Shown here: piece after piece, positions 13,923-43,771 of the stretch
How positions within the stretch are numbered: position 1 is the first letter of the stretch
Layout: the number at the start of each line of letters is the position of its first letter
Translations under genes and position numbers: made by a program
Source of the DNA: an uncultured Eubacteriales bacterium
GTDB taxonomy: Bacteria > Bacillota > Clostridia > Christensenellales > CAG-917
DNA length: 46,796 bases
NCBI GenBank assembly: GCA_900551145.1
Contig: URUQ01000001.1
Span: forward strand, 1 to 46,796
Reading direction: 5' to 3'
The notes under the pieces: model-generated
Database searches by the model: none
Told to the model about the DNA's origin: nothing
Seen by the model: the letters and a program-made list of their open reading frames with translations, nothing else

Positions 13923-13980
13923 GACAATTTTCCTTACCGTTGAAATTTTAGAGTGAATTGTCGAAAATTAGCAATAAAAC

Positions 13981-15186: not shown

Positions 15187-15193
15187 ATTGAAG

Positions 15194-15598: not shown

Positions 15599-15627
15599 TT
15601 GACAAAAGCGTGCGAAAATCGTATAAT
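15599..15627 (+). promoter_or_regulatory. Perfect consensus sigma-A promoter of the giant gene (TTGACA - 17 nt - TATAAT)
   Basis: TTGACA lies at 15599-15604, followed by a 17-nt spacer and TATAAT at 15622-15627. It is about 60 nt upstream of the ATG at 15688. Confidence 0.7.
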
Positions 15628-15650
15628 TGTCACGTATAATAATCTATCGT

Positions 15651-15672
15651 GCATACGCAAGTGAGCGTGTGC
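15651..15672 (+). promoter_or_regulatory. 5' UTR stem-loop immediately upstream of the RBS (possible 5' mRNA stabiliser)
   Basis: GCATACGC-aagtga-GCGTGTGC forms 8 bp including one G-U pair. The GGAGGA RBS is at 15677-15682. Confidence 0.35.
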
Positions 15673-15687
15673 CTTCGGAGGAAGATT

Positions 15688-15762
15688 ATGAGAATGAGAA
15701 AGTTATCACTCGTTTTGCTGCTCGTGATGGTCAGTGTTATGCTGTTCGGTCTCGTAGCATGT
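15688..15762 (+). other. SPase-II (lipoprotein) signal peptide with lipobox L-V-A-C
   Basis: The sequence is MRMRK (n-region), LSLVLLLVMVSVMLFG (h-region), LVA|C (lipobox). The Cys codon TGT is at 15760-15762 and is followed by NTSSGDNSTTPVIPTPNPGG, a linker-like stretch. Confidence 0.75.
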
Positions 15763-18700
15763 AATACGTCCTCGGGCGACAACAGCACTACGCCTGTTAT
15801 CCCGACACCGAATCCCGGCGGGGACATCGTCGACAACAAGACGATGCTCGATTCGCAGATTGCATGGCAATTGTTTAAGACGGTTGCACTCAATGCGGGA
15901 GCGGAAAGCAGTAGAGGCAGTCGTTACATATCGGTCGACACGACGTTCATACTCGGTTTCCAAAAAGACTCGTACGATTCTCTCGTGACGATGCGCTTTG
16001 CCGGTAAGATCGATACGGAAGCCAATTCGCAAGCCGACGACACTAGCGAAATCCTCGTTGAGTTCAGACAATTCAAAAACGACGAACTCGGCGACGCGAC
16101 GGTGGACGCGGACAGAATTACGACACTTTCGTCAAGCGGACAGGGCAAACTTCTTTGCGGCGCGTACTACTATGAGGGCAAACTCGTCACCGATATGCGC
16201 GGTCTTAAGAAAGGCGTTCAAGTCGCTTGGACGAAGGATATCGATATGGCCGCGTTCGTTGAGAAATTCAACGGATTGCTCGAAGACCTCAACCTCACGC
16301 AAGTGGTGTTTGACAAGCTCCTCGGCCTCGACGTCGGAGCGCTTATCAAGAAACTTGCGGGTCTCGATCTCGTCAACGTGACGGTGGAACAATTGCTCGT
16401 CAACGTTCTTTTGGGCGGTGCTCGTTCTCGTTATATCGATTACGGCAGCGGACACGCGGCATTGCAAATTCCTATTGACCTCGGCATTATCGTCGGGGCG
16501 ATTCCGCTCGTTCAAGGCTTGATACCCGAAAATATCACGGCTCTCGTAAAACAAATTCTCGGTCTCGATCTCGGCAAGCTCGGCTCTTTGGCCGGTATGG
16601 CTTTGTATCTCGAAGCGGATATCAGAGAGGCGAACACCGATAAGGCAAAACTTACGGGCATCAAGTTTGACATCGACACCAACTTCAATTCTTACGGCGT
16701 AAAAGAAGTCGAAGAAAGATACGGCAAATTCCAAAGCGAAGTCGGTATCTCTTTGGGTTACGCAAAAGCAGACTTTGCGGGCTCTCCCGACATTGACGTA
16801 AAGGGACTTCTTCAAAAACGCACCAAAGACAACGTACCGTTCGAAGACGGTGCGGATACTTCCGATAACTTCTATTCTCACGTTGAAACAAAAATTGCTG
16901 AAAACAAGCAAACTTATTCTCCCCTCACTCTCGATGCGGAAATCAAACTCACGCTTGACCTCAAAGAAGGCAAGTTGACCATTCAAAACGCAATCGACTC
17001 TTTCGGCACGCTCATATCAAATATAATCACCAAAAACGTATCTCCGGAAATGATGGCTTCGCTTTCCAAGTTGTTTGCGAAAGACATCGTTATCAACAAT
17101 CAAAAGATAGAACTTTCCGTCGCGTTGCAAGGCAAGATCAACACCAAGAACCCCAAAGAAACCAAGATTTTGGCGGAAGTTCGCGGTCTTGACAGCAAGA
17201 AGAGACTCGGCGCGTACTATGACGGCTCTCTCGAAGGCGTTTATATAGACGCAAGCGGTGTGCTCGGTGAAAACGGCACGAAGTTCAGAGTGGACGACAT
17301 CAACGTCAACGAACTTCTCGACAGCCTTATCGACAAACTTTTCGACACCATCAAAAACGCTATCAACGGCGATGCAACGGGAAGCGCAAGCTATGCTCAA
17401 CTCCTCGACGATGCGGACATCATTATCGAACACGACACTCTCGCGTCCGACAGCGTAGACACGATGAGCCTCATTTCCGCTATCGTGGAAAAGGTCAAAG
17501 TGGATATGGACGGAAATATTTTCAACATCAAAGGTATTTCCGTGGCACTTACGCAAGACGTCCTCGATATGATCTTCGGTCTTGTATTCACGGGTGACAA
17601 CGCAGGCGCAAAAATTCCGCTCGATTATGCGGAACTCAAATATGAAAACGACGGAGGACAACGCGAAAAACGCCTCGGTCTCACGGCAAAACTCCTTATT
17701 CCCAACTCCGATAGCAATATCAACAACGGTTTGGATTTGACGCTCGGATTGGGCGGTGCAATAACGTTCGGCAACATCAACAATATCGATTATTTCAACG
17801 ACGCTTTCGCATACGTACAAGAACACGCAAACGAGTATTTGCCTATCCTTTCCAACGGTGAACTCAACGCAAACCTCTTGCACGTCAACGTTTCTACGGG
17901 CATCAAGATTGATTTCGAGACGCTCAAAGGCACGCTTGCAGACCTCAAAGTCGATTTGCGCGACCAAGAACTCGGCGATTCGTTCAGAGGTATCCTCATC
18001 GATTTGCTTGTCGAGCTTGGCAACATCAAAGGCGGGCTCAAACTCGACCTCAGCGCGGACATTGACGCAACGGACGGTCTCGACCTCAACGCTATACTCA
18101 AATCCACCGCAAAGATAATCATCTCCAAGTCAAACGGCAACCAAGTGCTTTCACTCTACTTGCAAGACGGCGTTTTGTATCTCGACGCGTCGTTGTTGGG
18201 CAGTATAAAAGTGGACAAAATCAAGGTTGACCTTGCGGAATTGTTGCCCGCACTCGGCGTCGGCGCAAGCACTTCTTCCAAAGACGCTTACGTAGTCGAT
18301 GACGATACGCAGGGCGATGGCCTCGACACCGCGAAACTTATCGGTTTCATCGCGGGCGTGTTCCAAGGCGTCAAGATCGGCAACAACGCAATCGAAGTCG
18401 TCATCGGCGGCGGTATTCTCAACGAGCTTCTCACGATGCTTGGTATCAACAATCCCGCAACGCATTGGTACGACGAAGCGCAAGGCGATTACGTTGAAAT
18501 CGCAAAAACTCCCGCACCCGACGATTATACGGGCAAATATTATTATTTCGACGCTTCCGCCAACAAATACAAGGTGGCAAACGGCATCGATGTCAATTTT
18601 GAAAACTCCGATATCCAAGGCGGTATAAGAATCGCGCTCAACGACGGTCTCAACCTCAGCAAGCTCGAGCTCGGCGTATTCCTCGGACTCGGAAGCAGTC

Positions 18701-21700
18701 TCAACGCGGATATCTCCATTATGGGCATAACCGCAGGTCTTTCCGACCAATGCACCAAATATCTCGACGAGAACGATGCAAACGAATATCTCGAAATCTT
18801 GAAATATCCGTATATCTCTCTCGATTTGAGCCTCGGTCTCGACTTCCACGCGGACGAAGGTACGACTTTGATGCAATTCGGCATCAAGGGTACGCACTAC
18901 TTTGACGAAGAAACGAGACAATTCGTGGAAATCACCAAGGCCACTCCCGTTCCGAACGGTTATCTCGGAAAACTCTACTATTACGACGAGGCGGCAGGTC
19001 AATACGTTCCCGAAACGATAAATACGACGGAATTTACGTTTGAAAGAGATATGAAACTCAATTACGAGTTCCGCCTTGCGGGGCAAATCGATTTGTCGCC
19101 TATCCTCGCGTACTTGTTCGGTTCACCCGAAATCAGCACCAAAGACAACTCCACGTCCTTGCTCATCGAGCTTACGGGTAAGAAATTCGACTACGACCGC
19201 AAGGTTTTGCTCGGTTTGTACTACACGGGTAGCCAACTTTATATCGACGCAAGCAACTTTGGCATCGGCAAAGTCAAAGCCGATGTGGATTTGTATGAAA
19301 TTATCCTCGGATTGCTCGCAAAAGACTCCGTAGTAAGCATCAACGGCAACGGACAAGCGGTTGACGCAATGACGGCGGCGGAAGGTGACGCAACCGACAT
19401 CAAGGCAAAGAGACAACTCGCTTTGTCTATTATCGCTTTGCTCTCTTCAGACAGTCTCAAAATCGAACTTGCAAAAGGTTTGACCGAACTCGTATACGCG
19501 ATCCTCGGCGTTGACGCCAACGACGTCACGGCGTGGCTCGATATCGCTTGGGACAACCTCGAAGCACATGACGGCAAGTTCTTCCGCGTCAGCGGTTCGG
19601 TAAGCAACGTAAGCGGACAAGAAACGGGCGGTGCGGAAATTTACGGTCGTACGGTCAGTATCAATCTTGGCAATAAACAAGGTCCTACACACTGGTATAA
19701 CAACGCTACGGGTGAATATATCGCAGTGGCAGATCAACCCGCGCCCGCAGATTATATCGGAAAATATTATTACAACTGGTTTGGTACGTACAAAGAGTAC
19801 TCAACCGAAATTTTGATCGACCACAACGGTGAAAGCGTGCCGATGGGCAAATACTTGCAAGACAACGCCTTCGAGGACGCAAGCTTGTTCAACGAAAACG
19901 GCGACGTGACCATTCCCAGTATTTACGCGGAGATTAAGGGCACGATTTCCATCGGCGCAGACGCAGGCAACGACAAGTGGACAATCGGTGAATGGATTTC
20001 CAACTTCCTCGGCGACGACAACCCGAGCCTCAAATCCTTCATCGGTGATTTGCTCTTGCAATTCAACACACCGGTTGCGGCAGGTTCGGACATCGGTTTC
20101 CGTATCGCGCTCAACGCACGCCTCAATCCCGAAGTGCCTATCGATTTGTCGCAAAACGTTTACTATGTAAAACACGTTTTGACCACTCCGATTGCTTTGA
20201 CGAACGACTTCGATTACGTCGAAGTATACAAAATCGACGAAGCGGGCAAGAAATACGTTCTTTTGACGCAAGACGAGCGCAACACATATACGGGACAAGT
20301 GTTTGTCAAGTACTATAAGACAGATGGTATTGCGCTTGCCGAAACCAAACACGACGTCGCATTCAGAGGCGAAGCGTTTATTATCAAAGGTGACGCGGCG
20401 GTCAAGATTAACGTCACGGACGATAACGCAGAGAAGTACAAAGACGTGGCACTCTATTCGGCGGCGTCATTCCTCGATATCGCATATATACTCTCTCACA
20501 GCGACCTCGCAATCGAGATTTACAATGCAAGTATCGAAGATATCGACGGTATGAGCAACGCTCAAAAACTCGAAAAAGTTATCCTCGCACTACGCGTCGT
20601 TTATGCGGGTGAAGAGAACGGAAAGAGCGTAAGCACTCTCTATCTCGACATCAAAAACGACTTCCACCTTGCACTCACCAACATGCCGCTCGGTGACTTG
20701 CTCGGAGGTTTGCTCACGTCTTCGGATAGCACGGCAACGACCTCAGACGATACGCCCGATAATAACGCGAAGCCCGACATTATGGGCATTATCGGCTCAT
20801 CCCTCGGCAACCTCATCAGCCGTATCGGTATCGGCGAGGACAAAGTAAAAGTCAACTTTGCACAAGCGCTCGTAGCAACGCTCGTCAGTATGATATCCGG
20901 CAAACAAATTTCCGCGGACAACTTCCTCAAACTCGACTCCGACAACAGTTATCTCGCGTTTATGTGGAACAACGACTCTCCGTGGAAGAGCAACTATAAA
21001 CTTGACCTCAAAGTCAAGGCAGACCCTCTTTCTCTCGGTATCACGCTCAGCGGAATTGATATCGAAATCGGCAAAGACAACGGTGTTTTGCCCGAAGATT
21101 TCGACGCGTCCGTATACACGAGTTTTGAAAACCTCAATACTCTCTCTCTCAACGTCGAACTCGGTCTCGAACTCGGTCTCAAAAAGCAAGACGAGGAAAT
21201 CCGTCTTGAAAAATACATTGACCTTCTTATCAAGGATCTCGGTCTTAAACTCGGCATCGACTTCAAGGACGACGTATCGTACAAGATAGGTTTGACGGTT
21301 GGCGCAAACCTCGTTCTTAACGAAGCAAACGCGTCGAGAATGATTGTCGAAATCAAAAACGAAAATAACGGAGAAAGCATTCTTTCCGTGTACGTCGACG
21401 GCGGAGATATATACTTCGACTTCGGTGAACTCGGCGGAAACAAACCGTTCTATCTCAAAAATACCAACCTCAGCGAAGTCGTTTGCAACTACGTTAAGAA
21501 ATTGCTCGGCGACCTCAACAGCGTTGTAGGCAAGGGCGGAAACGACGCTTCCACGGCGGCAGATACCGCTGAACTGAGCGCAGACGAAAAGATGCAACTC
21601 ATTTTGGGTATCTCGGAAGGTAAACTCAGCGTTCTCGTTATGGAAAACGTCATCGTTGGGCTTATTGCGGCGATTACGTCCGGCACGAGCGGCGATATCG

Positions 21701-36700: not shown

Positions 36701-39700
36701 AAGAAGCACTCAAATCCATCACGGGCGCAGACGGTACGATCGATTACTACAAGGGACTCGAAGCAACTGTCAAAGCAAAGGTCGGCGGTGACAGATTCAG
36801 CATCTCTTCGACGGTGACCAAGGAAGGTCTTGTAACCAACAAGACGGGCTTCGTCGGAAGCGAAACGACATACGAAGGCGTTTACGCACAAGAAGTAAGC
36901 GTCAAGATAGTCGTCAAGGGCAGTGTGTTCTCGTCACTCAACACAGCGTTGACGTTTGACGCGTACTCCGCAAGAGAGATCACGGGCGACGCACTCGGCG
37001 CAATGCTCGATATCAACTTCGCGGGCTCCGACACGTCCACCAAACTCCCCGTCGGTGACAAACTTCAAGTCAAAGCACCGTACGTCAAGATCGGCGACAA
37101 CTACGTCGTTGCGGACGGCAAGAACGGTGGTTATGCAATCGGCGCAAACGACCTCACCTTCGAGGGTTACAAGGCAACGGATTATCCGCTCTACGCACAA
37201 TTGACGATTGGTACGGAATTTAGCGGTAAGCAAGTGGTTTACGTTCCCATCACGGTAAGCACGGTCGCACCCACCACTTACAACGTTGACGTAGCACACG
37301 AAGACACCTTCAATCCGACGTGGTACAACAAAGACGCGTACAAGTCCTTCGACGTATCCTTCGGCACGACCACCAAGCACACGATGTACCCGGATTGGTC
37401 GACGGTAAACTATTACACCAACGCAAAGTGCACGACGCTTAAACCCGATCAAAACATCTACTCGGGCGGAACGATTTACGCACAAGTGCAAGCATACGTT
37501 TACGAGAAAGACGAAAATGGTGAGCCGATGTTCGACAAACCGCTCGGTCTCGTAGACACTGGTACGAAGGACGAAAACGGAAACAAGGTCTTCAAAGCGC
37601 AGACGATTACGCTCAAACTCAACGTCGAGCAACAATCCATCTTGTCCGTCAACTTCTTCTACGACGCACAAATCGGCGACGTCAACGCGTTGACCGACGC
37701 AGAGCGTGAACAAATCAAAGACAAACTCACCGATAAGGCGAACTACACGGGTACCGTTTACGGACAAACGCACGTCATCGGCTCGGAGGCGTTCGGTATC
37801 GACGCACTTGAATTTGCGAAAGACCCGAGCAAGTACTTCAGAACCGGCGCTTGGGGTGATATCAACGGCACAATAGTGCTCGTCAACCTCAAAAAAGGCA
37901 CGTACTCCGGCAAACGTTACACAATCCAAGAGAGCCTCAGCGGTGAATACAAGTACGACGAAGCAAACGACAGATATATCCTCGCAACCGCTTCCGACAC
38001 GGACGTAAAACGCTATGCGTTCACGCAAGACAACGACGGCGACTACAAATACGAGATCGCCAAGAAATCTTACGTAAAACTCACGGCGGGTGAAAAGGGT
38101 GAATCCTACCTCGCATACGTCCAAGGCTGGACGACCAAGATCGAGTCGTCAACCGTGACGGGCAGACAAACCAGAGTCTACGCGGTCATCGGCAACAACG
38201 ATATGGTCCCGATCGATATCCACGTGCCAGATTACACCGTGCAAACCGTATCCTTCAAGAACGGAACGCTCGTCCAAAACGGTGACGTCGCAAACGAATT
38301 GACTCTTACTTACGACGTGATGAACGCGTGGCAATTGCCTTCAACCGCGACCGTAACGGTCAAAGAGGGCGCAAAGGCGTTTGACACCGAAGTGTTCTGG
38401 GATGACAATTCTTCGCCCAACAAGGACGAATTGCGCAAGGACGAAAACGGCGTCTACGTCGTACGCAACTATCACTTCTTCGACAATCTCTCCGTGAGAT
38501 ATCCTCAAACGGGCTCGCTCGGCGCAAAGGTGTACCTTGACAATTACGATATCAACGTTACGATAACGCCCGACGGACAAGCGAATGAATATAACGTATT
38601 CTCGTCCTTCAAGTTTGCGTCTACCGCAACGGTCACCAAGAACGGCGTCGATTATCCGAACGTACCGCTTAAATGGGTTGACAAGTCAATGCCGACCGCA
38701 GAAGAAATCAAGGCAGGCAAGTTCACGAGAAAGGCTTACGTCGCGGCGTTCAGCGTCGGCGAAGACGGCACGATGACTCCTGTATATAAAGACTTCGAGT
38801 TCAAGATCAACAACGGGTTCACTCTTGACGGCATCGACGGCAACTATGCAGACGGCTTTGCAATCACTCGCGAAGGCGCGGCGTTCTTCCTCGGATTGCC
38901 GAGAGCAAGCGTTGTCAACGTCAACGGTGAGAGAATAGAAGTCGCACTTGCGTGGAGCGACGCATACACCAAGGAAGCAGGCTTCAACGGCGATATGACG
39001 CTCACTATCGCGAGCAAGTGGCTCACCTCCACCGTCACGGCAAACGTAACGGTCAAGGGCGAGAGCATTGACAGACTCAAAGATTACGACGGCACGCCGT
39101 ACTCGTTTGATCCGTTCTGGAAAGAAGGCAACTTCTTCCGCTCGGGTGAAGTCAGAACAATCGTCACCAAGGGTAGCGCACTCGAAGCGGGCGTCACGGT
39201 AACGTATTCGCTTGCGGATATCGATCCTGCAAACCTTAAGAGCGACGCAGACTTCTACGCCAACGTCAGCAAGTACTTCGGAAGAAAGTACACGATAGGC
39301 GTGACTTACACCTACTTCGGCGGTGCAGACGTGATGACGGAGACGGGCACTATCGATATAGCAGTCGGTGACAGAACCGTATTGTTCGTATCCGATTATG
39401 CGTATCGTGCAATCTTGGTCGACACCTTCCTCAACACCGACGCAAGCTATCTCGAAAGAGAGCTCTGGGTTGCAACGGCAGGCGTATGGGGCGACGTGCT
39501 TGCATACTTCGATTGGACGCAAGTGGACGCACTCATCAAGGATAGAAAGAGCGACTCCAAACATATGGCAACCGTAATCGTCGGTATCGAGAGTGCGGAC
39601 GGACAATACGTCTATCAAGATATTTACGGCACGCACGTTGACGAAAACGGAAACGTCTTAATGGGCGACGGTAAGAAAGAATACGTGACGATTGACGAGT

Positions 39701-42399
39701 ATCTCGAAGCAATGAGAAAAGTCAATGCGGACTTCGAACTCACGAATGAAAAGAGATATCATCTTGCGATGCAAAAGGTCAACGTACCGGTTACGGTACT
39801 TGACCGCACCGTCGTGGATGCAGAGCTCTTCATGGAAGGAACGGGACTTACCGTGACCAATACAGAAGAGAAGTATTCCACCATTACGGATACGCTCGTC
39901 GGAGAGGTCGGAACGGGACGCTACATCGACATCGTTTACGACAAGAATAGCGGAATGCCCACCGAGTACGTCTATTACAATCAATTTGCGTATATCGGCG
40001 GAGACAAATTGCCTCATACCATGATCCTCACCTTCGCAAGCGGTGAGAAGGGTGAATATTACATCACCTATGACAACGCACCGACGTCGCAAGAGATGAA
40101 GAATATCTCCAAGACGCTCGAAAGGACGATGACCGTCCATGTTTGGAACACCAATCGCGCGGTGGACGAAAACGCATTCGAGGTTATGCCGTCGTTCGAG
40201 ATGAAGATTAAAGTGCACGTGTCTAAGGTCACGGTGTTCAACAGCGACATTGCTTATGAGAATATGTCTGTCGGTGAGTATCGCTACACCTTCAACCCGT
40301 ACACGAGCGAGGACGAGTCCTTGTTCAACACGGACAACTATGACAAGACGTTCACCTACTACGTAGACGGTCAATTTATGACTGCTCAAAACTGGTGGTC
40401 GGACGGCAGAACTGTTGACGCCAACGAATACCGTTACACCTCCGCGTGGACGAAACGCCACAACAATTACAACGTATACACGCTTGCGGGTTCGAGAGAA
40501 GGCACGATCGGTGAATTCGAACAAGACGTAGTGTTCTACACCGTAAACAAGAACACCAAGACTTACACGAGATACACAGGCGTGGTCAACTATGACGCAG
40601 CGGATTATTCTTACAAGACGACAAGTGGTGAAAACTTGTATGTATTCGTCTACGTAACGACTCAAACGCTTGACGCAACGTGGAACACCAAGAGTGCGGA
40701 ATACGGCTACAAGGGTGGCAACACCACCGTCAAAGCGACAGTGTCAAGCGAAGTAAACGGCAACAGCGCAACGGCGACCATCAATGTAACGGTCAACGTC
40801 AAGAGCGGTCAGAGCACATCTTCGGCATTCGACGGCGCAACGGAAACCGAATTGACTTACTGGAACGCATCCGCAAACGCATTCGTCATCGATCCGTTCA
40901 GAGCGGTTGACGGCGGAGCGTTCGCAAGAGTCAGCGGGTACACGGGTGACCGTTATGAGAAATCGTCCACAGCAACGAGCGGTTACGTCAAGAACAACCT
41001 TGACGGAACGTATATGCTCGTCAAGGCGGCAGACGGCACGGATACCTACGTTGAAATCCCGACCGCACAACTTGACCGCACATACAAGTACTTCCCGTCC
41101 AAGATAAGCGTCACGCTCGAAGACGGACAAGTAGTAAGTGTGCCCGTAACGTGGGACTTCGGCGGTGTCAACGTAAGTTATCAAGGCGGAAACTACACTG
41201 CGTACGCAATTCTCAACCACGACGGAGAATACAACTATCAAGACAACAAAGTCGGAGAGCAAAGAATTCAATTCGCAGTCAAAGTTCTTGACAGAAGCGC
41301 ACAAAGCGTCAAGACGACGAGCGCGCTCACTTCTTTGAAGGGATTCGTCAAGTCAGGCCAAGACTACATCAATCCGTACGATTATCAAAAACCGACTATG
41401 CCGACGACGCTTACCGTCAATATCAAGACGTACAACGCGGACGGCAGTGAAAACTCCACTGAAGAGCGCACGTACAGCGTTGCAAACAACACGCTTGCGT
41501 GGAACTTCGACAAGTTCCGCCCGAGCTACGAAGGCGGTGCTGTGTACGTTACTGCAAAACTTTACGATGTTGACGGCAACGTACAAAAATACGACATTCC
41601 GTTCCTCGTACAAAGAATGTACGCAACGCAAATCAAGTCCATAAGCTCGCTCGGCGTTGAAGACGGCATCTTCGACAGCAAGGTGACGAACAGCAAAACC
41701 GACTCCGACTTCACGTTCAACCCGTACAAGTCCGATAAACTCGTGTTGCCGATCGCATACAAAGTAACGTTTGCAATCTTCAACCCCGTTTACGACAACG
41801 GCAACGTGACGTGGCCTGAGATAAACAACGGCACGAGCACTGTGAGATTCAACTACACGCTCGTCTCGATGCCCGCGTCCACTTCTTACACGGTGAACGC
41901 AGGCGGGATCACTTCAACCGTTGACGGACAAAGCGCAACTATTAAGCTCGGCACGCAAGAGCGTCTCACGGTAGACATCAAAGTTTCCGGTTCTAAGGCG
42001 TTCAGCGGTACGCAAAGCGTAAGCGCATCCGCAAGCGGACTCAGCGTAATCCACAACGGAGCGTCCGTCGCGTGGTTCGGCAGAGCGTACGTGTACGACA
42101 TGAATGGCAGTGAGATCACCAACTACGCCGTGACACTCTCCACCGCAATATTGTCAAGCGATACCACCAAGACCATCTTGCCGTCCACCTTCGGTGCAAG
42201 AAAAGTTGTTTACAAACTCTACGCCGCAGTCGGTACGGTAATCGACGCAACCGGTAAGGTCGTCACCACCAAGACTGCAACCGCGTCTGAGGGATTCGAC
42301 ACCGCCTACGTCAAAGTAGGACAAGAAATCCCCGCATATCAAGCACTCTCCAATCTCGTCACAATGACGTATGAGAACGGAACATGGAGCGTTCAATAA
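15688..42399 (+). CDS. Giant (8,903-aa) modular cell-surface lipoprotein; function unknown
   Basis: The reading frame is uninterrupted for 26,712 nt. ATG 15688 lies 5 nt after GGAGGA. The gene has a lipoprotein signal peptide, a consensus promoter upstream and a strong terminator 30 nt after the stop. Internal repeat architecture is listed under the repeat features. There is no LPXTG motif or C-terminal TM helix. Confidence 0.85.
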   Translation: MRMRKLSLVLLLVMVSVMLFGLVACNTSSGDNSTTPVIPTPNPGGDIVDNKTMLDSQIAWQLFKTVALNAGAESSRGSRYISVDTTFILGFQKDSYDSLVTMRFAGKIDTEANSQADDTSEILVEFRQFKNDELGDATVDADRITTLSSSGQGKLLCGAYYYEGKLVTDMRGLKKGVQVAWTKDIDMAAFVEKFNGLLEDLNLTQVVFDKLLGLDVGALIKKLAGLDLVNVTVEQLLVNVLLGGARSRYIDYGSGHAALQIPIDLGIIVGAIPLVQGLIPENITALVKQILGLDLGKLGSLAGMALYLEADIREANTDKAKLTGIKFDIDTNFNSYGVKEVEERYGKFQSEVGISLGYAKADFAGSPDIDVKGLLQKRTKDNVPFEDGADTSDNFYSHVETKIAENKQTYSPLTLDAEIKLTLDLKEGKLTIQNAIDSFGTLISNIITKNVSPEMMASLSKLFAKDIVINNQKIELSVALQGKINTKNPKETKILAEVRGLDSKKRLGAYYDGSLEGVYIDASGVLGENGTKFRVDDINVNELLDSLIDKLFDTIKNAINGDATGSASYAQLLDDADIIIEHDTLASDSVDTMSLISAIVEKVKVDMDGNIFNIKGISVALTQDVLDMIFGLVFTGDNAGAKIPLDYAELKYENDGGQREKRLGLTAKLLIPNSDSNINNGLDLTLGLGGAITFGNINNIDYFNDAFAYVQEHANEYLPILSNGELNANLLHVNVSTGIKIDFETLKGTLADLKVDLRDQELGDSFRGILIDLLVELGNIKGGLKLDLSADIDATDGLDLNAILKSTAKIIISKSNGNQVLSLYLQDGVLYLDASLLGSIKVDKIKVDLAELLPALGVGASTSSKDAYVVDDDTQGDGLDTAKLIGFIAGVFQGVKIGNNAIEVVIGGGILNELLTMLGINNPATHWYDEAQGDYVEIAKTPAPDDYTGKYYYFDASANKYKVANGIDVNFENSDIQGGIRIALNDGLNLSKLELGVFLGLGSSLNADISIMGITAGLSDQCTKYLDENDANEYLEILKYPYISLDLSLGLDFHADEGTTLMQFGIKGTHYFDEETRQFVEITKATPVPNGYLGKLYYYDEAAGQYVPETINTTEFTFERDMKLNYEFRLAGQIDLSPILAYLFGSPEISTKDNSTSLLIELTGKKFDYDRKVLLGLYYTGSQLYIDASNFGIGKVKADVDLYEIILGLLAKDSVVSINGNGQAVDAMTAAEGDATDIKAKRQLALSIIALLSSDSLKIELAKGLTELVYAILGVDANDVTAWLDIAWDNLEAHDGKFFRVSGSVSNVSGQETGGAEIYGRTVSINLGNKQGPTHWYNNATGEYIAVADQPAPADYIGKYYYNWFGTYKEYSTEILIDHNGESVPMGKYLQDNAFEDASLFNENGDVTIPSIYAEIKGTISIGADAGNDKWTIGEWISNFLGDDNPSLKSFIGDLLLQFNTPVAAGSDIGFRIALNARLNPEVPIDLSQNVYYVKHVLTTPIALTNDFDYVEVYKIDEAGKKYVLLTQDERNTYTGQVFVKYYKTDGIALAETKHDVAFRGEAFIIKGDAAVKINVTDDNAEKYKDVALYSAASFLDIAYILSHSDLAIEIYNASIEDIDGMSNAQKLEKVILALRVVYAGEENGKSVSTLYLDIKNDFHLALTNMPLGDLLGGLLTSSDSTATTSDDTPDNNAKPDIMGIIGSSLGNLISRIGIGEDKVKVNFAQALVATLVSMISGKQISADNFLKLDSDNSYLAFMWNNDSPWKSNYKLDLKVKADPLSLGITLSGIDIEIGKDNGVLPEDFDASVYTSFENLNTLSLNVELGLELGLKKQDEEIRLEKYIDLLIKDLGLKLGIDFKDDVSYKIGLTVGANLVLNEANASRMIVEIKNENNGESILSVYVDGGDIYFDFGELGGNKPFYLKNTNLSEVVCNYVKKLLGDLNSVVGKGGNDASTAADTAELSADEKMQLILGISEGKLSVLVMENVIVGLIAAITSGTSGDIDIAKVLEEFDLDLSVAVDFQLDPSLRLDLNVDSNLINVGIGVKDIALATGNDTQTRKTIDAKVDTIVNSGRFKELTDAHIIAVDLSLIVDYYGSATYTYVDDERALNRINPAERYSLNAHDNRFVQDNDGRYIREGFTFDKLLDVILGMQGLESITKMMLPQILISTANKELGFTTVKDAFSVGDLLQRLGLSLALTDKVDDGFKLDINARLNLEAMGMNDLSQLDIKNLNLGLETILAGLEAHIGIDFTYELGAASTAKLDIYLIDGRIYVDASGIGGPRVQVDLLDLLDSLGVELASSSSDAIIADGETPSDDSTKDNNTSVDVVGIVNKLIKNIIITAKPWDAGSLENGNRIDNVGIFFRSNAINELLSLLLKTTIESDQVVLDESNSGLYLYPQTDMFGDDMLALRLRASLANKKDPIWIANGEDYQQYTMDLVLALNAQIGLESTSGNEEGMLDIDERRQFISLNEYVENILGLVNGFRDEIYSVEKTPLENGIYYVFNEDANGNYILKSGMYRPINEGENIAEGTKRYSRGYATIVGRYVENAEGEYILDATNGTYRLISNGEDVSGKQRYAFVEEVYALTYEEDVNGEYVYNEEKGVYVNKNSADAPAGATKYYTRTMTAIKVTDENGNETVATVKDVKVYKRAEKAVYQDQNIGLSVSGLIYFNSGSAETTNAGGLISNLFGDMIINLQTKSAFNAGIGVRISANVDLAALDLLGLISGGSIESFIANSDLDKVELAIEFIEVDEYGFFAEYANGEKKVLGGLYLNHGTLYLDLTEVVDTAENYSKIDNFVDFAKKIIDKFQKDDGQGQDATVAADVQEISAERASAVRDAMVLLAYSDAQFQIQLTRALLAFVISSFMPDLGSIEEVFDVFNISLGVDLGRAEFKKISDLSPEEQAKFDNEYKGDRYKLNNSTDPEVQDTYYVEVTDLDAYYRTEKGDYYSADSMILYTGVDNYVEISKVEASSYTGAIYKADGENYVELAEGEKDTYEGTMYKKVTTYVITSKYEAGKTYIAPNSKYELITGVAYGKYINKNDDYYGLVKFGEVEQKVNLRNYKLYVYDGSARVETDTFIKDTENNYFTYVMYNGEPVKIESIYKYQFGYVKDPNGEYYRTVTLFDYISEYYLGLDIAIGCVNMGLKLGGLDITIGAGKELLPDYIRDQKAHSYVKDGEEYLYTSDIPEEDMALVGEVKTNPFYDTIITLSFSVEFELGITEGTLDFGQILSNIIGNLAGIVVEMPSTTKGYSSAHFRLDVSLMVDIYDLTKSELKLELINITESGYESLWLGAYYVNNTIYLNLEEAFNIQKVAIGGLNIAEILEDYIIDFETTDEYFDYTDKTATSSTKDAFIASDDATTGDDIDFSNKDLALAILINKDLLTVAIGDMLFDTILEYIPESLLGFDIKDLFYQEINGSLQLKLDTANKINLEVSATLGLDGERFNAVGTDKVTQADDLASAKLYVFQPSTTGNFVSGNAGQYFRAIAPGKDKDVLASERYERFRIVEYNPVTKEIVAKRVIDNNKGDGSEVLDSAENIFPLADTKIYEFVAGAQANKSYVSDGAKYDTTLELSLAIKDLDVAFTNSRTYVLSGDELAEYTNFDDVDRFTLEETIDISTSFKYGSDIDLSVVLETLLPGLSGEDLLKIKAESDTKGDVNRSLQLVVKADIQIAALLNYFRTELVKYVGDDDQFDGDMDLFVVIDLLKKVLDQFGQSALTELVANIASFVNLSVVLQTKGGNDADYHDLLGIYMAGGTFELLTDADIDDPTSEDYIAPSERFDHYFETKNGSYYLDSDGKYKLIESGEYAGTRYSYDSSYCYSNEKGRYKRVNGGLFIDLSYFNIPSVKVDANEVRKLVSSLFTAGTTQSDAIASDDEQPEEKPEDKQDISFPLVKDDTILEYIRAFAYGLQITSRYVRVLAQPDYINKLLTLLMGEDAIQFDDSEFRNKPAVTLYTDNTRYSYEHRADVINAFKEEVKDMTDHTTPAYIKARKELVGELERSRNLFRIQPYNDASKGLYYLDEDGAYVQKSDMSAADREAYDKLVNAGTKAYYDITMVTTYIQVAGTYIPYADANQSQINSSVNNTEMRNTYGVSIPELYVYDEASKTYAVADDGVYSIVKPLEARNAFLEINLYLWDYEVSLSILAPKLGVTKFHYVTGEEVENAPYYITNPAEGARYVDTDEIIYTSVDKEADGFDGWKLDYDDADGKFSVDKYLASPRYYEYKNKYYVIDNNTLYVKDQNTNTYELATKYGAFPDYLAGIAQGKTYYVSTGVSYTEIQRTFIYKQEKYNTQKKVLLSDLRKQLLASGMSEAEVDEQLKKYDLDKSSYWFKVQQDSKILPPDFSDAKYADYEYKEYVDTEDFYYLSLALCGSLFLQAGKIYFAYNDYKQVYNTLNNPTGDQNADVEMAVLKKIAYKKYHGDYVQVTDETEIEALKDAGQLYVWVNSALGDGYAGINEALGDVLGALLGNLKGKFQVTEDMTFNVYFTLRLNLGFKLYILPSFGIDIRDLDVAIDIWGEQNDKLENGGYVSSEDRDNKNYEGKLLDGTKPHILGIYYNNDQETGKAGLYLDLEALLGKDAKLYVDMSSYSLESLLTGLVAGFNIDADASTADDNTDKYNPDKQGSDAVSLYLNFFTNAIALNVTSGFAKALIRELLPDNASIADMLPNLKVYVKQNLNPYDLTIGAILFNEQGDIPVVNLGLNIQGLNGERGKSSSIEFGRKEDILARQQGSNYIFYYANFYRDNSNANYDNYYGRNFDEKDYIKLYRGADGNDYYAKADGGYALTAKADGTYDVQAIENGGYALYKAGNVNYGPEDRFMRADTVLEEITENRRYSLGSPYNTEYQSVVYTDIKGQYVLVQEKLNNLTSSEYRYLALSKQFAAFNGTLYVIDKDANYVRVNKTQIQGFTGSGSLQYALEGTYNANASEIARAVSYNGATYYPIDPDNNGYTDMYEADGFTAYTSGAIVNRTGLVYTGELYVKNAKGGYDNANVKVGDTLESGVQYFYPNAPEKAYKVTSDFTNYVKAVNLNLSDLINGAKMDIASMLGDLRSLEIGASLSLGMKLSDIINWTYQLTNFIDDESICDYLYFIASSLTDYYSSFTSTIGLDLDLKVFLQTGGLFRMIAGDTTATILDVLEGAKVYLELTYATNYHGENAPKGYLWVEVREGKLYLNIDVHEIGEIVGWGDFFSYGVINGLDLGALLSGGSASLASTAADEENDNTGILPANIWGIINVVLGRLLIANDFITIGLNETLIADLIGMLADSDSALLAGIGQFLPKLYTTNDKDTSGITINFYGNQPSVDINLGFKVGTTFYLSVEDYNAQYGVGGSRIKQGEGTTWTDGMTTFVKDGDNYTQATSFSEDNYVLVSTDEYALISYAFPLWTGDRYSYENGEFKLDNANGVYLKQGDFRLAISLGKLYARVNKDFSVDKDEKMAERDSEGNIIRDANGNASYGQYVSIQNAKLSLDMTIDVSLYGSGRKEDGNEIDLSKILDLILGLINPNSAISGSTLRLVIKNAIGNDSGAFLKLNLTANVDLENWTVELAVRLRRNTVKDGESTLLGLYLVDDALYVDLQGILGETAKICVNGLNLSGKTGLIYGLLGKYIDGEAGTSSDASTSDASDIEKIEQTMRDYAYFMIMVNPQKFLLQLNADLINVIYRKIMQIRGLDYSEDLLPDIGDILIRGETRQYELLTEEEKTTYTGARFRKEGNNYVYDAAGDYKYVPGATKTSINVRFSDGLYFCIDIPAATASKEIVSIKSATSKYGLADSIANGEFGDPILALDLNSLINGGSIDLASLKLPTIGLSTVINVKMKSDNLKPTDAKYKLSLAQWTRDLVAGLLDGTSLLGNFKKISEMTEAELAKAGSKTYNYNSSTRAYDYVEDGTGEYKFIMADLNITMASELIELQVKLDANINLAAILAYGIGGILYSDIAVEISALNKQLLSLYYLGSSKLAKNNDPKRNDWELTTDEDGTVFSDAIYIDASGLGLGKIKFQGISGLLGAYPYQKVSLDAISSADSTTSATDTGASTADGEALNLTVEIENGSLGVTFDKAFITTLLGMLNVNLGIELPPIQSVSLDIATSTTGLKAISIDAVLDSVGTGANISIQDLKLAFRQEVFNAKDVIESVKTGYAGLTFSKTSGLMSLVQNVLDNLKPGLNINIQNKVWQAVLDGDVAAKNVGSNIVLDGRKVLTYTNLSDTSKEEQNAGEKYNLRFALSSSRATTGLTAIIGGNNAFITNLSLKGTLIKIAQALVSFFDCIDIGSLLGSSPMLALVSGTDGDDASYVYPSAATTANDKNLANIKTGWQEDGSYSYTPNLSGLIKSVDLNLFNNYEYWPYFAGAQEMSKGAGKISAKVTLDKDAYNELILMVDCIVMNLMKAIGDDNEPYIADVAKAGKSLANAAIDGIGTTNEYKNFFNGLDELVKRNATTQEKVNYVDKVARSFPLTLVKWIMNCIALPAIKNTINVSWGTVKNLAGSTLLDLMNLIGGILPIPFASGVIDPSINIYIDLDPNPAEYGCSGKTMQPGIQAIEIMVNGEKAGAGTSMRYNKANGNAASNTTITSSVSNGKDLPSDVWDFFMLRITPYSTTDASYTTGMLTFDDADSASVIGVEKVPTEIVITDPATRTGTAYYKGEEKTIQLRDSYFFNAEYFSQKADVNFALKNGGKTVNTYNPNSPYQDATGTYIVWDAASVDLTAADDTDSSGRRFAGYVYGYALNVVMYAIPVYVTNDYQQTDIKAYDYNANTGKFERKNITLDIDSQSKTFRSELPNLVQISFARGTYTFGTVITDATGNTMYAVIKDGNGYKQLAGEEVNKDGNKYKLVPAYVAGLVKDGDTLQTVKEGDFTYYVMDMTKMPQGRNFPAGTIAWDTEDFEYDWQGSTTWKDGEATNSIKVGYSYQWGSSNTVKNKIEITAKNYKISRLTSMTDANGNKVSLSSESDKKGNYTTVLNIDALGLTTDDLVGYLNGFNQATVKYVAGANTPTMSLEWDLTSLQEALKSITGADGTIDYYKGLEATVKAKVGGDRFSISSTVTKEGLVTNKTGFVGSETTYEGVYAQEVSVKIVVKGSVFSSLNTALTFDAYSAREITGDALGAMLDINFAGSDTSTKLPVGDKLQVKAPYVKIGDNYVVADGKNGGYAIGANDLTFEGYKATDYPLYAQLTIGTEFSGKQVVYVPITVSTVAPTTYNVDVAHEDTFNPTWYNKDAYKSFDVSFGTTTKHTMYPDWSTVNYYTNAKCTTLKPDQNIYSGGTIYAQVQAYVYEKDENGEPMFDKPLGLVDTGTKDENGNKVFKAQTITLKLNVEQQSILSVNFFYDAQIGDVNALTDAEREQIKDKLTDKANYTGTVYGQTHVIGSEAFGIDALEFAKDPSKYFRTGAWGDINGTIVLVNLKKGTYSGKRYTIQESLSGEYKYDEANDRYILATASDTDVKRYAFTQDNDGDYKYEIAKKSYVKLTAGEKGESYLAYVQGWTTKIESSTVTGRQTRVYAVIGNNDMVPIDIHVPDYTVQTVSFKNGTLVQNGDVANELTLTYDVMNAWQLPSTATVTVKEGAKAFDTEVFWDDNSSPNKDELRKDENGVYVVRNYHFFDNLSVRYPQTGSLGAKVYLDNYDINVTITPDGQANEYNVFSSFKFASTATVTKNGVDYPNVPLKWVDKSMPTAEEIKAGKFTRKAYVAAFSVGEDGTMTPVYKDFEFKINNGFTLDGIDGNYADGFAITREGAAFFLGLPRASVVNVNGERIEVALAWSDAYTKEAGFNGDMTLTIASKWLTSTVTANVTVKGESIDRLKDYDGTPYSFDPFWKEGNFFRSGEVRTIVTKGSALEAGVTVTYSLADIDPANLKSDADFYANVSKYFGRKYTIGVTYTYFGGADVMTETGTIDIAVGDRTVLFVSDYAYRAILVDTFLNTDASYLERELWVATAGVWGDVLAYFDWTQVDALIKDRKSDSKHMATVIVGIESADGQYVYQDIYGTHVDENGNVLMGDGKKEYVTIDEYLEAMRKVNADFELTNEKRYHLAMQKVNVPVTVLDRTVVDAELFMEGTGLTVTNTEEKYSTITDTLVGEVGTGRYIDIVYDKNSGMPTEYVYYNQFAYIGGDKLPHTMILTFASGEKGEYYITYDNAPTSQEMKNISKTLERTMTVHVWNTNRAVDENAFEVMPSFEMKIKVHVSKVTVFNSDIAYENMSVGEYRYTFNPYTSEDESLFNTDNYDKTFTYYVDGQFMTAQNWWSDGRTVDANEYRYTSAWTKRHNNYNVYTLAGSREGTIGEFEQDVVFYTVNKNTKTYTRYTGVVNYDAADYSYKTTSGENLYVFVYVTTQTLDATWNTKSAEYGYKGGNTTVKATVSSEVNGNSATATINVTVNVKSGQSTSSAFDGATETELTYWNASANAFVIDPFRAVDGGAFARVSGYTGDRYEKSSTATSGYVKNNLDGTYMLVKAADGTDTYVEIPTAQLDRTYKYFPSKISVTLEDGQVVSVPVTWDFGGVNVSYQGGNYTAYAILNHDGEYNYQDNKVGEQRIQFAVKVLDRSAQSVKTTSALTSLKGFVKSGQDYINPYDYQKPTMPTTLTVNIKTYNADGSENSTEERTYSVANNTLAWNFDKFRPSYEGGAVYVTAKLYDVDGNVQKYDIPFLVQRMYATQIKSISSLGVEDGIFDSKVTNSKTDSDFTFNPYKSDKLVLPIAYKVTFAIFNPVYDNGNVTWPEINNGTSTVRFNYTLVSMPASTSYTVNAGGITSTVDGQSATIKLGTQERLTVDIKVSGSKAFSGTQSVSASASGLSVIHNGASVAWFGRAYVYDMNGSEITNYAVTLSTAILSSDTTKTILPSTFGARKVVYKLYAAVGTVIDATGKVVTTKTATASEGFDTAYVKVGQEIPAYQALSNLVTMTYENGTWSVQ
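16159..33720 (+). repeat. 13-14 highly diverged copies of a 330-800-aa protein module with a conserved core of about 100-130 aa (unassigned repeat family)
   Basis: Core strands begin at nt 16159, 17206, 18148, 19207, 20629, 21379, 22480, 24001, 25567, 26944(+27199), 29359, 31183, 32389 and 33541(+33649). Examples are LGAYYDGSLEGVYIDASG, LSLYLQDGVLYLDASLLG, LLGLYYTGSQLYIDASNFG, LDIYLIDGRIYVDASGIGG and LLGLYLVDDALYVDLQGILG. The copies are diverged at DNA level, so assembly collapse is unlikely. Confidence 0.7.
18451..19800 (+). repeat. Three copies of a roughly 40-aa Tyr-rich motif, THW(Y/F)-x4-G-x-(Y/F)-(V/I)-x-(I/V)-x4-P-(A/V)-P-x2-Y-x-GK-(Y/L)-YY
   Basis: 18451-18585 encodes NPATHWYDEAQGDYVEIAKTPAPDDYTGKYYYFDASANKYKVANG. 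18889-19014 encodes GTHYFDEETRQFVEITKATPVPNGYLGKLYYYDEAAGQYVPE. 19681-19800 encodes GPTHWYNNATGEYIAVADQPAPADYIGKYYYNWFGTYKEY. Confidence 0.75.
35680..42396 (+). repeat. C-terminal array of at least 10 beta-sandwich units with a Big_4-like (bacterial Ig-like group 4) signature
   Basis: Units recur that start (L/F/M)P-x-x-(A/I/L)-x-V and have a conserved Trp 15-25 residues later. Examples are LPSTATVTVKEGAKAFDTEVFWDD (38335), FASTATVTKNGVDYPNVPLKWVD (38614), LPRASVVNVNGERIEVALAWSD (38896), FPSKISVTLEDGQVVSVPVTWDF (41092) and MPTTLTVNIKTY...LAWNF (41398). The family assignment is by eye only. Confidence 0.5.
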
Positions 42400-42429
42400 A
42401 CTCGTTTAGATATGCTATATCTTAAGATT

Positions 42430-42459
42430 AAAAGGGCTCTGCGACCGCAGAGCCCTTTT
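42430..42459 (+). terminator. Strong intrinsic terminator of the giant gene
   Basis: AAAAGGGCTCTGCG-ac-CGCAGAGCCCTTTT has a GC-rich stem with a U-tract, 30 nt after the TAA at 42397-42399. Confidence 0.8.
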
Positions 42460-42573
42460 AATCTATATCGACGTGATGCGCACTTATTAACGGAACGTGC
42501 GATATTAAAAATCAAAAAATAATACAAAACAAATATATCAACGCAATTATTGCGCGCAAACGCACGATTTTTA

Positions 42574-42633: not shown

Positions 42634-43749
42634 ATGGGATTTATTAAAAAACAACTTCTCAAAGTCATTCAATGGGAAGACAGTAGTCAAAATACTCTCG
42701 TTCACAAATTTGAGTATGATGATAGATATGCCATTATGAAGGGATCGGAGCTTATCGTAAGACCTTCACAAGCGGCAGTTTTCGTATACCGCGGATCTGT
42801 TTGCGACGTTTTCACGGAAGGCAACTGGAAGCTCGAAGAAGGTTCAACTCCCGTTCTCACCGCAATTGCAAACTGGAAATATGCCTTTGAAAACCCCAAA
42901 CAAGTTGATGTTTATTACGTCAACCTCAAACGCTTTACGCAAATGAAGTGGGGGACGCCCAATCCGATTATGATGCGCGACAAGGATTTCGGCATGATCC
43001 GCATCGCAGGTCACGGTGAATATTCCTTCCATGTCATGAATCCGGAACTCTTTATGAAAGAGATTTACGGCACGACGCATTCCTACAAGACGGAAGATAT
43101 CGAAGAACATCTCAAATCTTTGGTACTTGCAGAACTTACAGATTTGCTCGGTGAGTGTGAAATTCCCGCACTCGAACTTGCCGCCAACTATATCGAACTC
43201 GGCGAAACCGCGGCGAAGCAAGTCGCACCGAGATTTAACGAAATCGGTCTTGACATCGACAATATCATCATTCGCAACTTCAAACTTCCCGAAGCAGTCG
43301 AGAAGGCAATGGACAAGCGCACCACACTCGGCGTATTCGATGGCAAGATGAACGATTACGCACAATACGAATCGGTCCAAGCAATGCGTGACGCGGCAAA
43401 GAACCCCGGTATGGGCGGTATGTTCGGCGCGGCAGGTATCGGCCTCGGTATGGGAGCAAGAGTGGGCAACCAATTTGCACAAAATCTTGACGAAGCAAGT
43501 GCGCAAAAGGTCAAATGCACCAAATGCGGAGCCAGTGTAAAAGCAGGCATGAAATTCTGCCCCGAATGCGGAGCGAAAATTAGCGTAGGCGCAACTGTAA
43601 AATGCGCAAAATGCGGAGCGGAAGTCCCCGAAGGAAGCAAATTTTGCCCCGAATGCGGACAACCTATGAGTGTAACTTGCCCCAAGTGCAACGCCACCTT
43701 GAAGGCGGGCATCAAGTTCTGCCCCGAGTGCGGAGCAAAACTCTACTAA
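42634..43749 (+). CDS. SPFH/Band-7 family protein (COG4260, YdjI-like, 'virion core protein-like') with three C-terminal zinc ribbons
   Basis: The N-terminus MGFIKKQLLKVIQWED...LVHKF...IMKGSELIVRPSQAAVFVYRG is typical of the Band_7_1/YdjI family. The tail carries three C-x2-C...C-x2-C ribbons. Confidence 0.8.
   Translation: MGFIKKQLLKVIQWEDSSQNTLVHKFEYDDRYAIMKGSELIVRPSQAAVFVYRGSVCDVFTEGNWKLEEGSTPVLTAIANWKYAFENPKQVDVYYVNLKRFTQMKWGTPNPIMMRDKDFGMIRIAGHGEYSFHVMNPELFMKEIYGTTHSYKTEDIEEHLKSLVLAELTDLLGECEIPALELAANYIELGETAAKQVAPRFNEIGLDIDNIIIRNFKLPEAVEKAMDKRTTLGVFDGKMNDYAQYESVQAMRDAAKNPGMGGMFGAAGIGLGMGARVGNQFAQNLDEASAQKVKCTKCGASVKAGMKFCPECGAKISVGATVKCAKCGAEVPEGSKFCPECGQPMSVTCPKCNATLKAGIKFCPECGAKLY
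43513..43746 (+). repeat. Three tandem zinc-ribbon units (K/T-C-x-K-C-x9-KFCPECG)
   Basis: The three units are KCTKCGASVKAGMKFCPECGAKI, KCAKCGAEVPEGSKFCPECGQPM and TCPKCNATLKAGIKFCPECGAKL. Confidence 0.85.
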
Positions 43750-43771
43750 TAATCGCTATAACGGAATATAG

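Follow-up and report, generated by a model that had tools for sequence, protein, structure and literature searches.

Most known giant surface proteins of Bacillota are anchored by an LPXTG motif, by SLH domains or by a C-terminal transmembrane segment. Ebh of Staphylococcus aureus is built from FIVAR/GA helical repeats and has a C-terminal membrane anchor. Adhesins of the SiiE and LapA/LapF class occur in diderms, which export them by type I secretion, and are made up for the most part of many Big repeats that are nearly identical. The window described here is the whole stretch of 46,796 nucleotides of contig URUQ01000001.1 (assembly GCA_900551145.1), which comes from an uncultured Eubacteriales bacterium of the Christensenellales. 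It carries one very large gene at 15688..42399. On balance, the product of this gene is probably a lipid-anchored extracellular structural fibre of a new lineage-restricted family, with an adhesive or protective role.

Ebh (EbhA, about 1.1 MDa) is similar to the window protein in size, in its occurrence in Bacillota, in its many tandem modules, in being extracellular and acidic, and in its supposed role as an envelope fibre. The window protein differs in that it has no Pfam FIVAR/GA match, its modules are alpha/beta and its anchor is an N-terminal lipobox. With the SiiE and LapA/LapF class it shares a C-terminal array of immunoglobulin (Ig)-like beta domains, with Pfam Big_4 at or near its threshold. 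However, the copies that can be detected are divergent and few, and the unrelated module takes up two thirds of the protein. Lactobacillus (Apilactobacillus) kunkeei, a gut-associated member of Bacillota with a small genome, possesses lineage-restricted giant proteins of 3,000-9,000 amino acids (aa) with a signal peptide and no recognisable domains or homologues (PMC4494060). These are encoded in an array of 4-5 paralogous genes and share a conserved 60-aa C-terminal segment, and PSI-BLAST gave a hint to EbhA (PMC4494060). Compared by description and not by sequence, the window protein is like them in size, lineage restriction, N-terminal signal peptide, lack of recognisable domains and origin from a gut-associated member of Bacillota with a small genome; it differs in being encoded by one gene per genome, in its lipobox and in an architecture of 14 modules with an Ig-like tail. 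Ebh and the L. kunkeei proteins are the nearest functional analogues, although domains and anchoring are not shared. The giant proteins of Omnitrophota carry many transmembrane regions as well as SecA DEAD helicase domains of a divergent kind (bioRxiv 10.1101/2023.11.21.568195). The likeness is that of a rare, very long and largely unannotated metagenomic ORF (open reading frame), and the difference is that the window protein has its signal peptide as single hydrophobic segment and no SecA/DEAD match.

The only ORF listed at the locus spans 15649..42399 on the plus strand. The start codon is the ATG at 15688, which is common to all of the orthologues (MRMRK... or MRK...); the upstream GTG at 15649 is not used. 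The coding sequence is as follows.

15688..42399, plus strand: coding sequence, 8,903 aa plus stop, with no internal stop on translation from the ATG at 15688

An earlier reading of this DNA, the first-pass annotation, had been made from the letters alone and described a single unbroken frame of 26.7 kb for 8,903 aa, which the ORF listing and the translation bear out. It had also raised the question of whether the gene could be an assembly artefact. The window is without any N, and the G+C content is 49.6% in the ORF compared with 48.2% in the window. The frame was checked at 30 genome loci and two metagenome loci. In the genome set, 26 of 30 loci show no stop between the Met-lipobox start and the point where the examined DNA ends (4,100-4,800 codons). 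Stops were found in a nanopore metagenome-assembled genome (MAG), a scaffold with runs of N and two metagenome contigs, and two further frame changes are present in the Logan contig L033. Frame breaks of this kind, seen at the four related loci L001, L002, L007 (a long-read MAG) and L033, are what would favor an assembly chimera or a decaying pseudogene with no functional single gene. However, the positions of the breaks are not shared but differ from assembly to assembly. Two independent Logan assemblies contain the gene as one ORF each, P0082 for aa 2521-8903 and P0088 for aa 3723-8903, with 98.5% identity. Ten relatives are full length (6,529-7,924 aa) and, like the other orthologues, colinear with the window protein. 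The Nei-Gojobori ratio of nonsynonymous to synonymous changes (dN/dS), calculated against five orthologues, is uniformly 0.12-0.17 in each 1,000-aa bin of aa 1-4700. Given the open orthologous frames, the independent assemblies, the full-length relatives and the dN/dS values, the ORF is a genuine gene under purifying selection and not a chimera, and the chimera or pseudogene explanation is close to refuted.

In the public assemblies L001, L002, L007, L033 and L034, the orthologue is cut into 2-3 called genes, with the frame changes at differing positions. Many of the database entries of this giant-protein family are fragments. Assemblies and gene callers often fragment the gene, and the family is therefore under-represented in protein databases. 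Antisense "shadow" ORFs lie opposite the giant gene within 15688-42399, for example at 23395-27306 on the minus strand, and the longest of them is 1,303 aa. These are by-products of the codon composition of the giant gene and not genes. In high-GC relatives they are sometimes annotated by gene callers, as with a 373-aa minus-strand call in L002.

Orthologues were sought in one genome per GTDB species, as the first-pass annotation had proposed, and at least 30 species-level genomes, all of them MAGs of uncultured gut Clostridia, have one at this locus. Most are labeled Christensenella sp. UBA..., Firmicutes bacterium CAG:475 or CAG:238, UMGS or HGM, and a few bin labels are evidently wrong. One of the genomes is a complete long-read MAG of 1.65 Mb. 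When 1.84 billion cluster representatives were searched exhaustively by HMMER, an N-terminal profile matched 66 proteins, all of which are members of the family or fragments of members. Among them the ten full-length relatives are predicted lipoproteins, colinear from end to end at 22-40% identity. A word-indexed search of 5.8 billion proteins gave five matches each for the N-terminal and the C-terminal 1,500 aa, and all were orthologue fragments without Pfam domains. When the same word-indexed database was searched with a profile of aa 3130-3960 from 24 species, there was only one match, with 7% coverage; the database evidently holds few pieces of this region. Those relatives that are named in the sources are called "hypothetical protein", and literature searches found no paper on the giant-lipoprotein family. 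The first-pass annotation had spoken of a spore-former. This has no support in the window, and the genomes are labeled Christensenella or Christensenellales, a group whose cultured members are described as non-sporulating.

The N-terminus, MRMRK-LSLVLLLVMVSVMLFG-LVA-C25, is a canonical lipoprotein signal: the n-region is positively charged, the h-region is hydrophobic, and the lipobox fits the pattern [LVI][ASTVI][GAS]C. Two features are found at this end.

15688..15762, plus strand: signal peptide (aa 1-24) and lipobox L-V-A-C with Cys25, from the sequence and the alignment of homologues
15763..15822, plus strand: tether rich in Ser, Thr and Pro after the Cys predicted to be lipidated (aa 26-45), from the sequence and a model confidence (pLDDT) below 50

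The lipobox is present in 32 of 32 loci and in all ten of the full-length relatives, and its Cys is invariant, also in six-way alignments. No LPXTG motif was found over the 8,903 aa. Besides the signal peptide there is no hydrophobic segment of transmembrane length, and none is found at the C-terminus. S-layer anchoring domains are likewise not detected, as SLH, CW_binding_2 (CWB2) and CW_binding_1 gave no Pfam or NCBIfam match. The lipobox signal peptide reported earlier is thus confirmed, and, as had been stated, no attachment other than the predicted N-terminal lipid is visible. The protein is about 979 kDa with a pI of 4.5 and 15 Cys in all, and such an acidic, Cys-poor composition is usual for extracellular proteins.

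Pfam and NCBIfam gave nothing on aa 1-4500. On aa 4501-8903 they gave only a sub-threshold Big_4 and a noise-level aRib (14 bits with a cut-off of 27 bits) in the C-terminal half. None of the classical giant-adhesin families of Gram-positives (FIVAR/GA, Rib, cadherin-like, SdrD/CnaB and serine-rich repeats) had a Pfam match at E <= 1. A polymorphic toxin or an enzyme was considered and rejected, as no catalytic or toxin domain was found in Pfam or NCBIfam. The first-pass annotation had recognised no standard giant-adhesin repeats and no catalytic motif in the first 6,000 aa or so. This stands, but the protein does have repeats of its own, namely 14 diverged modules, and a Big_4-like Ig tail.

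The region of aa 52-6074 consists of 14 diverged copies of an alpha/beta module of about 200 aa. Profile-profile comparison of 300-aa tiles with hhalign, using a 26-species alignment, gave probabilities of 90-99% for homology between tiles. The copies were called with a hidden Markov model (HMM) iterated within the family, which converged on 14 in the window protein. They are listed here with their independent E-values (i-E).

15841..16401, plus strand: module copy 1 (aa 52-238), weak or partial, i-E 7e-4; it carries the GAYYYEGKLVTD hairpin motif
16903..17589, plus strand: module copy 2 (aa 406-634), i-E 2e-26; hhalign between tiles 92-96%
17863..18447, plus strand: module copy 3 (aa 726-920), i-E 7e-42; hhalign up to 98.8%
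18943..19512, plus strand: module copy 4 (aa 1086-1275), i-E 5e-34; hhalign of tiles
19918..20898, plus strand: module copy 5 (aa 1411-1737) with a Tyr-rich insert, i-E 7e-26; hhalign of tiles
21127..21681, plus strand: module copy 6 (aa 1814-1998), i-E 8e-28; hhalign of tiles
22138..22824, plus strand: module copy 7 (aa 2151-2379), i-E 1e-35; hhalign of tiles
23674..24297, plus strand: module copy 8 (aa 2663-2870), i-E 4e-30; hhalign of tiles
25309..25902, plus strand: module copy 9 (aa 3208-3405), i-E 2e-29; hhalign of tiles
26506..27504, plus strand: module copy 10 (aa 3607-3939) with a Tyr-rich insert, i-E 2e-31; hhalign of tiles
29026..29736, plus strand: module copy 11 (aa 4447-4683), i-E 2e-23
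30850..31500, plus strand: module copy 12 (aa 5055-5271), i-E 1e-22
32086..32700, plus strand: module copy 13 (aa 5467-5671), i-E 2e-20
33313..33909, plus strand: module copy 14 (aa 5876-6074), i-E 8e-18

Identity between the copies is only about 20%. Each module is conserved with its positional orthologue, and the whole protein is colinear in the relatives at 22-40% identity. Common to the modules is the hairpin LG(L/A)YY-x-G-x-LY(I/L)D, in which one Tyr is invariant. The hairpin is followed by a K-V-D strand, an amphipathic helix, an acidic loop of Ser, Thr, Ala and Asp, and a closing helix-strand-helix. Between the module cores there are hairpin-like inserts that are rich in Tyr (11-16%). 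The inserts are the least conserved and most indel-prone stretches among the orthologues, as expected for exposed decorations. The possibility that they are choline-binding or cell-wall-binding repeats was rejected because there was no Pfam match. The module has no match in Pfam, NCBIfam or the sequences of the PDB. The PDB sequence searches, made with both halves of the protein in phmmer and also with three profiles and a module profile of 13 paralogues, returned noise only. The module is new at the sequence level, and it has no convincing structural relative in the PDB or BFVD. The novelty proposed in the first-pass annotation therefore holds, in that the Pfam, NCBIfam and PDB sequence searches matched no known adhesin or repeat family across the module region.

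The remainder of the protein consists of a junction and a long C-terminal region with a few Ig-like domains.

33910..35367, plus strand: junction (aa 6075-6560, about 490 aa), from composition and Cys positions; conserved in relatives
35368..42396, plus strand: beta-rich, Thr-rich, Leu-poor C-terminal region (aa 6561-8903), from composition and weak internal repeats
37444..37779, plus strand: Big_4-like Ig copy (aa 7253-7364), iterated HMM i-E 3e-10
40672..40911, plus strand: Big_4-like Ig copy (aa 8329-8408), i-E 3e-17; hhalign 86-87%
41143..41406, plus strand: Big_4-like Ig copy (aa 8486-8573), i-E 6e-24; Pfam Big_4 sub-threshold
41491..41754, plus strand: Big_4-like Ig copy (aa 8602-8689), i-E 5e-16; hhalign 91.6%

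The junction carries four of the 15 Cys and matched no Pfam family. The C-terminal region of about 2,340 aa is a mixed array of domains of about 80-110 aa with weak repeats of about 80 aa, and it is colinear with P0006-P0010 and with the full-length relatives. A family-specific HMM detects four Big_4-like copies in the window protein. The Pfam model itself (Big_4, PF07532) scores 20.7 bits at aa 8464-8508, with a gathering threshold of 22.1. At the orthologous position it scores 23.9 bits in P0008, which is above the threshold, 21.4 in P0007 and 20.9 in P0009.

Structure prediction followed by Foldseek, another check named in the first-pass annotation, was run on aa 26-925 and found only weak fold matches. 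The AlphaFold2 model was made with 50 family sequences, and a six-sequence version (pLDDT 41.6) was discarded. It has a pLDDT of 69.1 and a predicted template modeling score (pTM) of 0.57, with a pLDDT of at least 70 in 510 of its 900 residues. The predicted fold is alpha/beta, with many antiparallel strands of 10-14 residues and amphipathic helices. Against the PDB, Foldseek gave borderline matches only; the best E-value was about 8e-4, with template modeling scores (TM) of at most 0.24 and root-mean-square deviations (rmsd) of 13-32 A. The top match by E-value is LptD and most of the others are porins, so these matches reflect generic long beta meanders. The only high-probability PDB matches, both weak, are LolB (9tpm; probability 0.89, E 1.2e-3, target-normalised TM 0.24, rmsd 15 A) and lipovitellin (1lsh_A; probability 0.90, E 3e-3, TM 0.11-0.12). 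Foldseek found nothing in the viral models of BFVD.

The gene is monocistronic and its expression signals could be read directly or from aligned orthologous leaders.

15599..15627, plus strand: sigma-70-type promoter, TTGACA-17 nt-TATAAT, 12/12 match to the consensus
15634..15646, plus strand: conserved box GTATAATAATCTA at or near the 5' end of the transcript, from aligned orthologous leaders
15651..15672, plus strand: leader stem-loop directly upstream of the ribosome-binding site (RBS), an RNAalifold consensus hairpin
15677..15682, plus strand: RBS GGAGGA, read directly, 5 nt before the ATG and conserved in all orthologues
42425..42464, plus strand: terminator hairpin with a perfect 18-bp stem, an A tract before it and a T tract after it, from folding energy

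Both promoter hexamers, -35 and -10, and their spacing are kept in about 25 orthologous loci of the close and middle clades. Just 3' of the -10 hexamer is a box, GTAT(A/T)AT(A/T)(A/G)TCT, that is near-invariant in 20 of 20 aligned leaders, including those of the high-GC clade at 27% identity. The leader hairpin shows compensatory changes in four of its six pairs when the orthologous leaders are compared with RNAalifold, and it is kept even in the clade at about 27% identity. No Rfam family matched the leader. The box and the hairpin may stabilise the mRNA at its 5' end or act as an operator. The terminator hairpin begins 26 nt past the stop and has a folding energy of -31.1 kcal/mol (z = -10.5 compared with shuffles). 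It escaped a simple terminator scan, as the A and T tracts are taken up into the stem. The perfect promoter, the GGAGGA RBS and the terminator of the first-pass annotation were thus all recovered, and with its own promoter and terminator the gene is the self-contained transcription unit that had been described. That the gene has kept its consensus promoter together with the leader stem-loop and the strong terminator suggests that its expression may be robust and constitutive.

From these features a course from export to function can be proposed. The precursor would be exported by Sec, and its lipobox would be processed by Lgt and LspA. As the conserved lipobox suggests, the cytoplasmic membrane would hold the N-terminus through a diacylglycerol on Cys25 that is inserted in its outer leaflet. 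A short tether of Ser, Thr and Pro would lead to about 6,000 aa of 14 position-specific, anciently diverged alpha/beta modules. In each module, long antiparallel strands would surround the invariant LY(I/L)D hairpin, together with amphipathic helices and a loop that is acidic. The modules, whose repeat architecture is itself directly observed, would form an elongated shaft across and beyond the wall. Since the C-terminal region of about 2,340 aa, with its four Big_4-like Ig domains, is the end farthest from the anchor, contact with glycans, host material or other cells would most likely be made there. The surface fibre or scaffold suggested by the first-pass annotation remains the most reasonable reading. 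Several points weigh against it. Lipidation, surface exposure and shape are all inferred. The model is limited to aa 26-925 and is of moderate confidence, and a rod is an assumption. The best matches by Foldseek probability are lipid-binding proteins (LolB and lipovitellin), which would leave room for a role in carrying a ligand. The repeats are old and position-specific and the dN/dS is ordinary, unlike the near-identical, copy-variable repeats of classical adhesin stalks, and a purely adhesive role is thereby weakened. This pattern would suit a defined structural element, such as a fibre, a ruler or a coat, at least as well as an adhesin.

A coat in the stricter sense would mean many lipid-anchored copies that form an abundant S-layer-like sheath, a protective hydrated layer like halomucin or an S-layer, with adhesion being secondary. 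S-layer mRNAs typically pair strong promoters with stabilising 5' stem-loops. Here, about 25 species keep the perfect promoter and the strong RBS along with the leader stem-loop and the strong terminator, the protein is very acidic, and the gene is single-copy, retained throughout the clade and under ordinary purifying selection, which fits a housekeeping component of the envelope. However, Pfam and NCBIfam detect neither SLH nor CWB2 nor any further domain for S-layer anchoring or lattice formation, and 979 kDa is several-fold above the known S-layer subunits. A high copy number of a protein of this size would therefore be very costly for a genome of 1.65 Mb, and such a sheath appears unlikely. 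It is more doubtful still that the protein is a carrier or conduit for hydrophobic ligands, in which the 14 modules would be helix-lidded, open beta-sheet cavities of the LolA/LolB or lipovitellin type and would bind lipids, lipoglycans or other hydrophobic molecules or pass them across the wall. LolB (9tpm, 0.89) and lipovitellin (1lsh_A, 0.90) share a curved antiparallel sheet plus helices with the model, no other Foldseek match reaches a high probability, LptD is the top match by E-value, and the modules do combine long amphipathic antiparallel strands with amphipathic helices. However, LolB/LolA and lipovitellin are single domains or have another multi-domain architecture, and they show no sequence or profile similarity to the window protein. 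The matches are weak (E about 1e-3, TM <=0.24, rmsd 13-32 A), with generic beta meanders of porins making up most of the others. The Pfam families LolA/LolB, AsmA/TamB, LptA/OstA and vitellogenin gave no match even at E <= 1, hhalign against Escherichia coli TamB stayed below 0.2%, and profile searches of PDB sequences gave nothing. A carrier would also leave the Ig-like tail of 2,340 aa without a role.

An AsmA/TamB-like lipid bridge was considered separately and rejected. There was no Pfam match to AsmA, TamB (DUF490) or DUF748, E. coli TamB aligned to the module profile and to the N-terminal profile with an hhalign probability of 0.1-0.2%, and no RBG/TamB structure is among the best 50 Foldseek matches in the PDB. 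There is a slim chance that the module region is a new structural class, a lipid-anchored chain of open, helix-lidded beta-sheet cavities with a remote likeness to LolB and lipovitellin. It would bind or relay hydrophobic compounds (lipids, lipoglycans, or bile or membrane components of the host) through the wall and past it, while the Ig-like tail would dock onto a partner surface. If true, the chain would be a monoderm extracellular counterpart of the bridge-like lipid transfer proteins in a reduced-genome gut Clostridium. The analysis has yielded no sign yet of an unprecedented mechanism.

The genes around the giant gene were also examined. A gene for a membrane acyltransferase of the DUF1624/HGSNAT type (14056-15222, minus strand) is divergent from the giant gene and about 465 bp upstream of it. 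Its position is kept in all loci of the close and middle clades, and in the high-GC clade it is about 5 kb upstream. The acyltransferase is possibly linked to the modification of envelope glycans. In L001, genes for a GH20 hexosaminidase and a PIG-L deacetylase are among those between it and the giant gene. Downstream, 42634-44845 on the plus strand encodes an SPFH/Band-7 protein with three C-terminal zinc ribbons and then a 357-aa Zn-ribbon protein. This pair is kept downstream of the giant gene in L033 and in the distant L034, and the MetRS, TatD and KsgA genes beyond it are likewise conserved. The first-pass annotation had singled out synteny with the acyltransferase and the SPFH pair. The synteny is present, but it is part of a general conservation of gene order in small genomes that includes MetRS, TatD and KsgA, and it is therefore weak evidence for a functional link. 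A functional operon with the SPFH/Zn-ribbon pair or the acyltransferase was rejected, as the giant gene has its own promoter and terminator, the neighbors belong to a long run of conserved gene order in which housekeeping genes are included, and in the high-GC clade the acyltransferase is some 5 kb distant.

Several other genes in the window can be mentioned. The window alone has a segment of 1.2 kb (12742-13961) with a gene for a 403-aa ATPase of the FtsK/SpoIIIE family (12711-13922). At this site in L003, L004 and L009, which are its closest relatives, the bPH_2 and acyltransferase genes are just about 130-200 bp apart, and the segment looks like a strain-specific insertion. The product is a generic ATPase domain and gives no support for spore formation. 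The gene at 3971-4723 on the minus strand codes for a protein of 250 aa that contains G-X-Y repeats of the collagen triple-helix type (Pfam Collagen, E 5e-15). This protein is conserved in L004, L009, L020 and L024, and the organism may thus have another filamentous protein on its surface. A stand-alone 429-aa protein (5836-7125, plus strand) has a condensation domain of the nonribosomal peptide synthetase (NRPS) type (E 2e-10) with no NRPS modules adjoining, and it is conserved in related genomes. The region of 116-3742 on the minus strand carries two HGD-D genes (D-component of 2-hydroxyacyl-CoA dehydratase) and a gene for a ParA/CbiA-like ATPase. These genes point to a metabolism of the type found in amino-acid-fermenting Clostridia.

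The protein would be one more giant bacterial surface protein, a kind already known, but with an unusual predicted lipid anchor and a new repeat module. Proteins of about 1 MDa are rare in bacteria, and this gene makes up about 1.6% of a 1.65-Mb genome. Every sampled member of this lineage from human and animal guts keeps the costly gene under purifying selection, so the gene must be important to these bacteria in the gut. With about 6,000 aa that have no relative in Pfam, NCBIfam or the PDB, the protein also marks a clear gap in the domain databases. If the module were defined, a new family or fold would be gained, and it could become clear how these uncultured Clostridia with reduced genomes attach to their surroundings or shield themselves from them.

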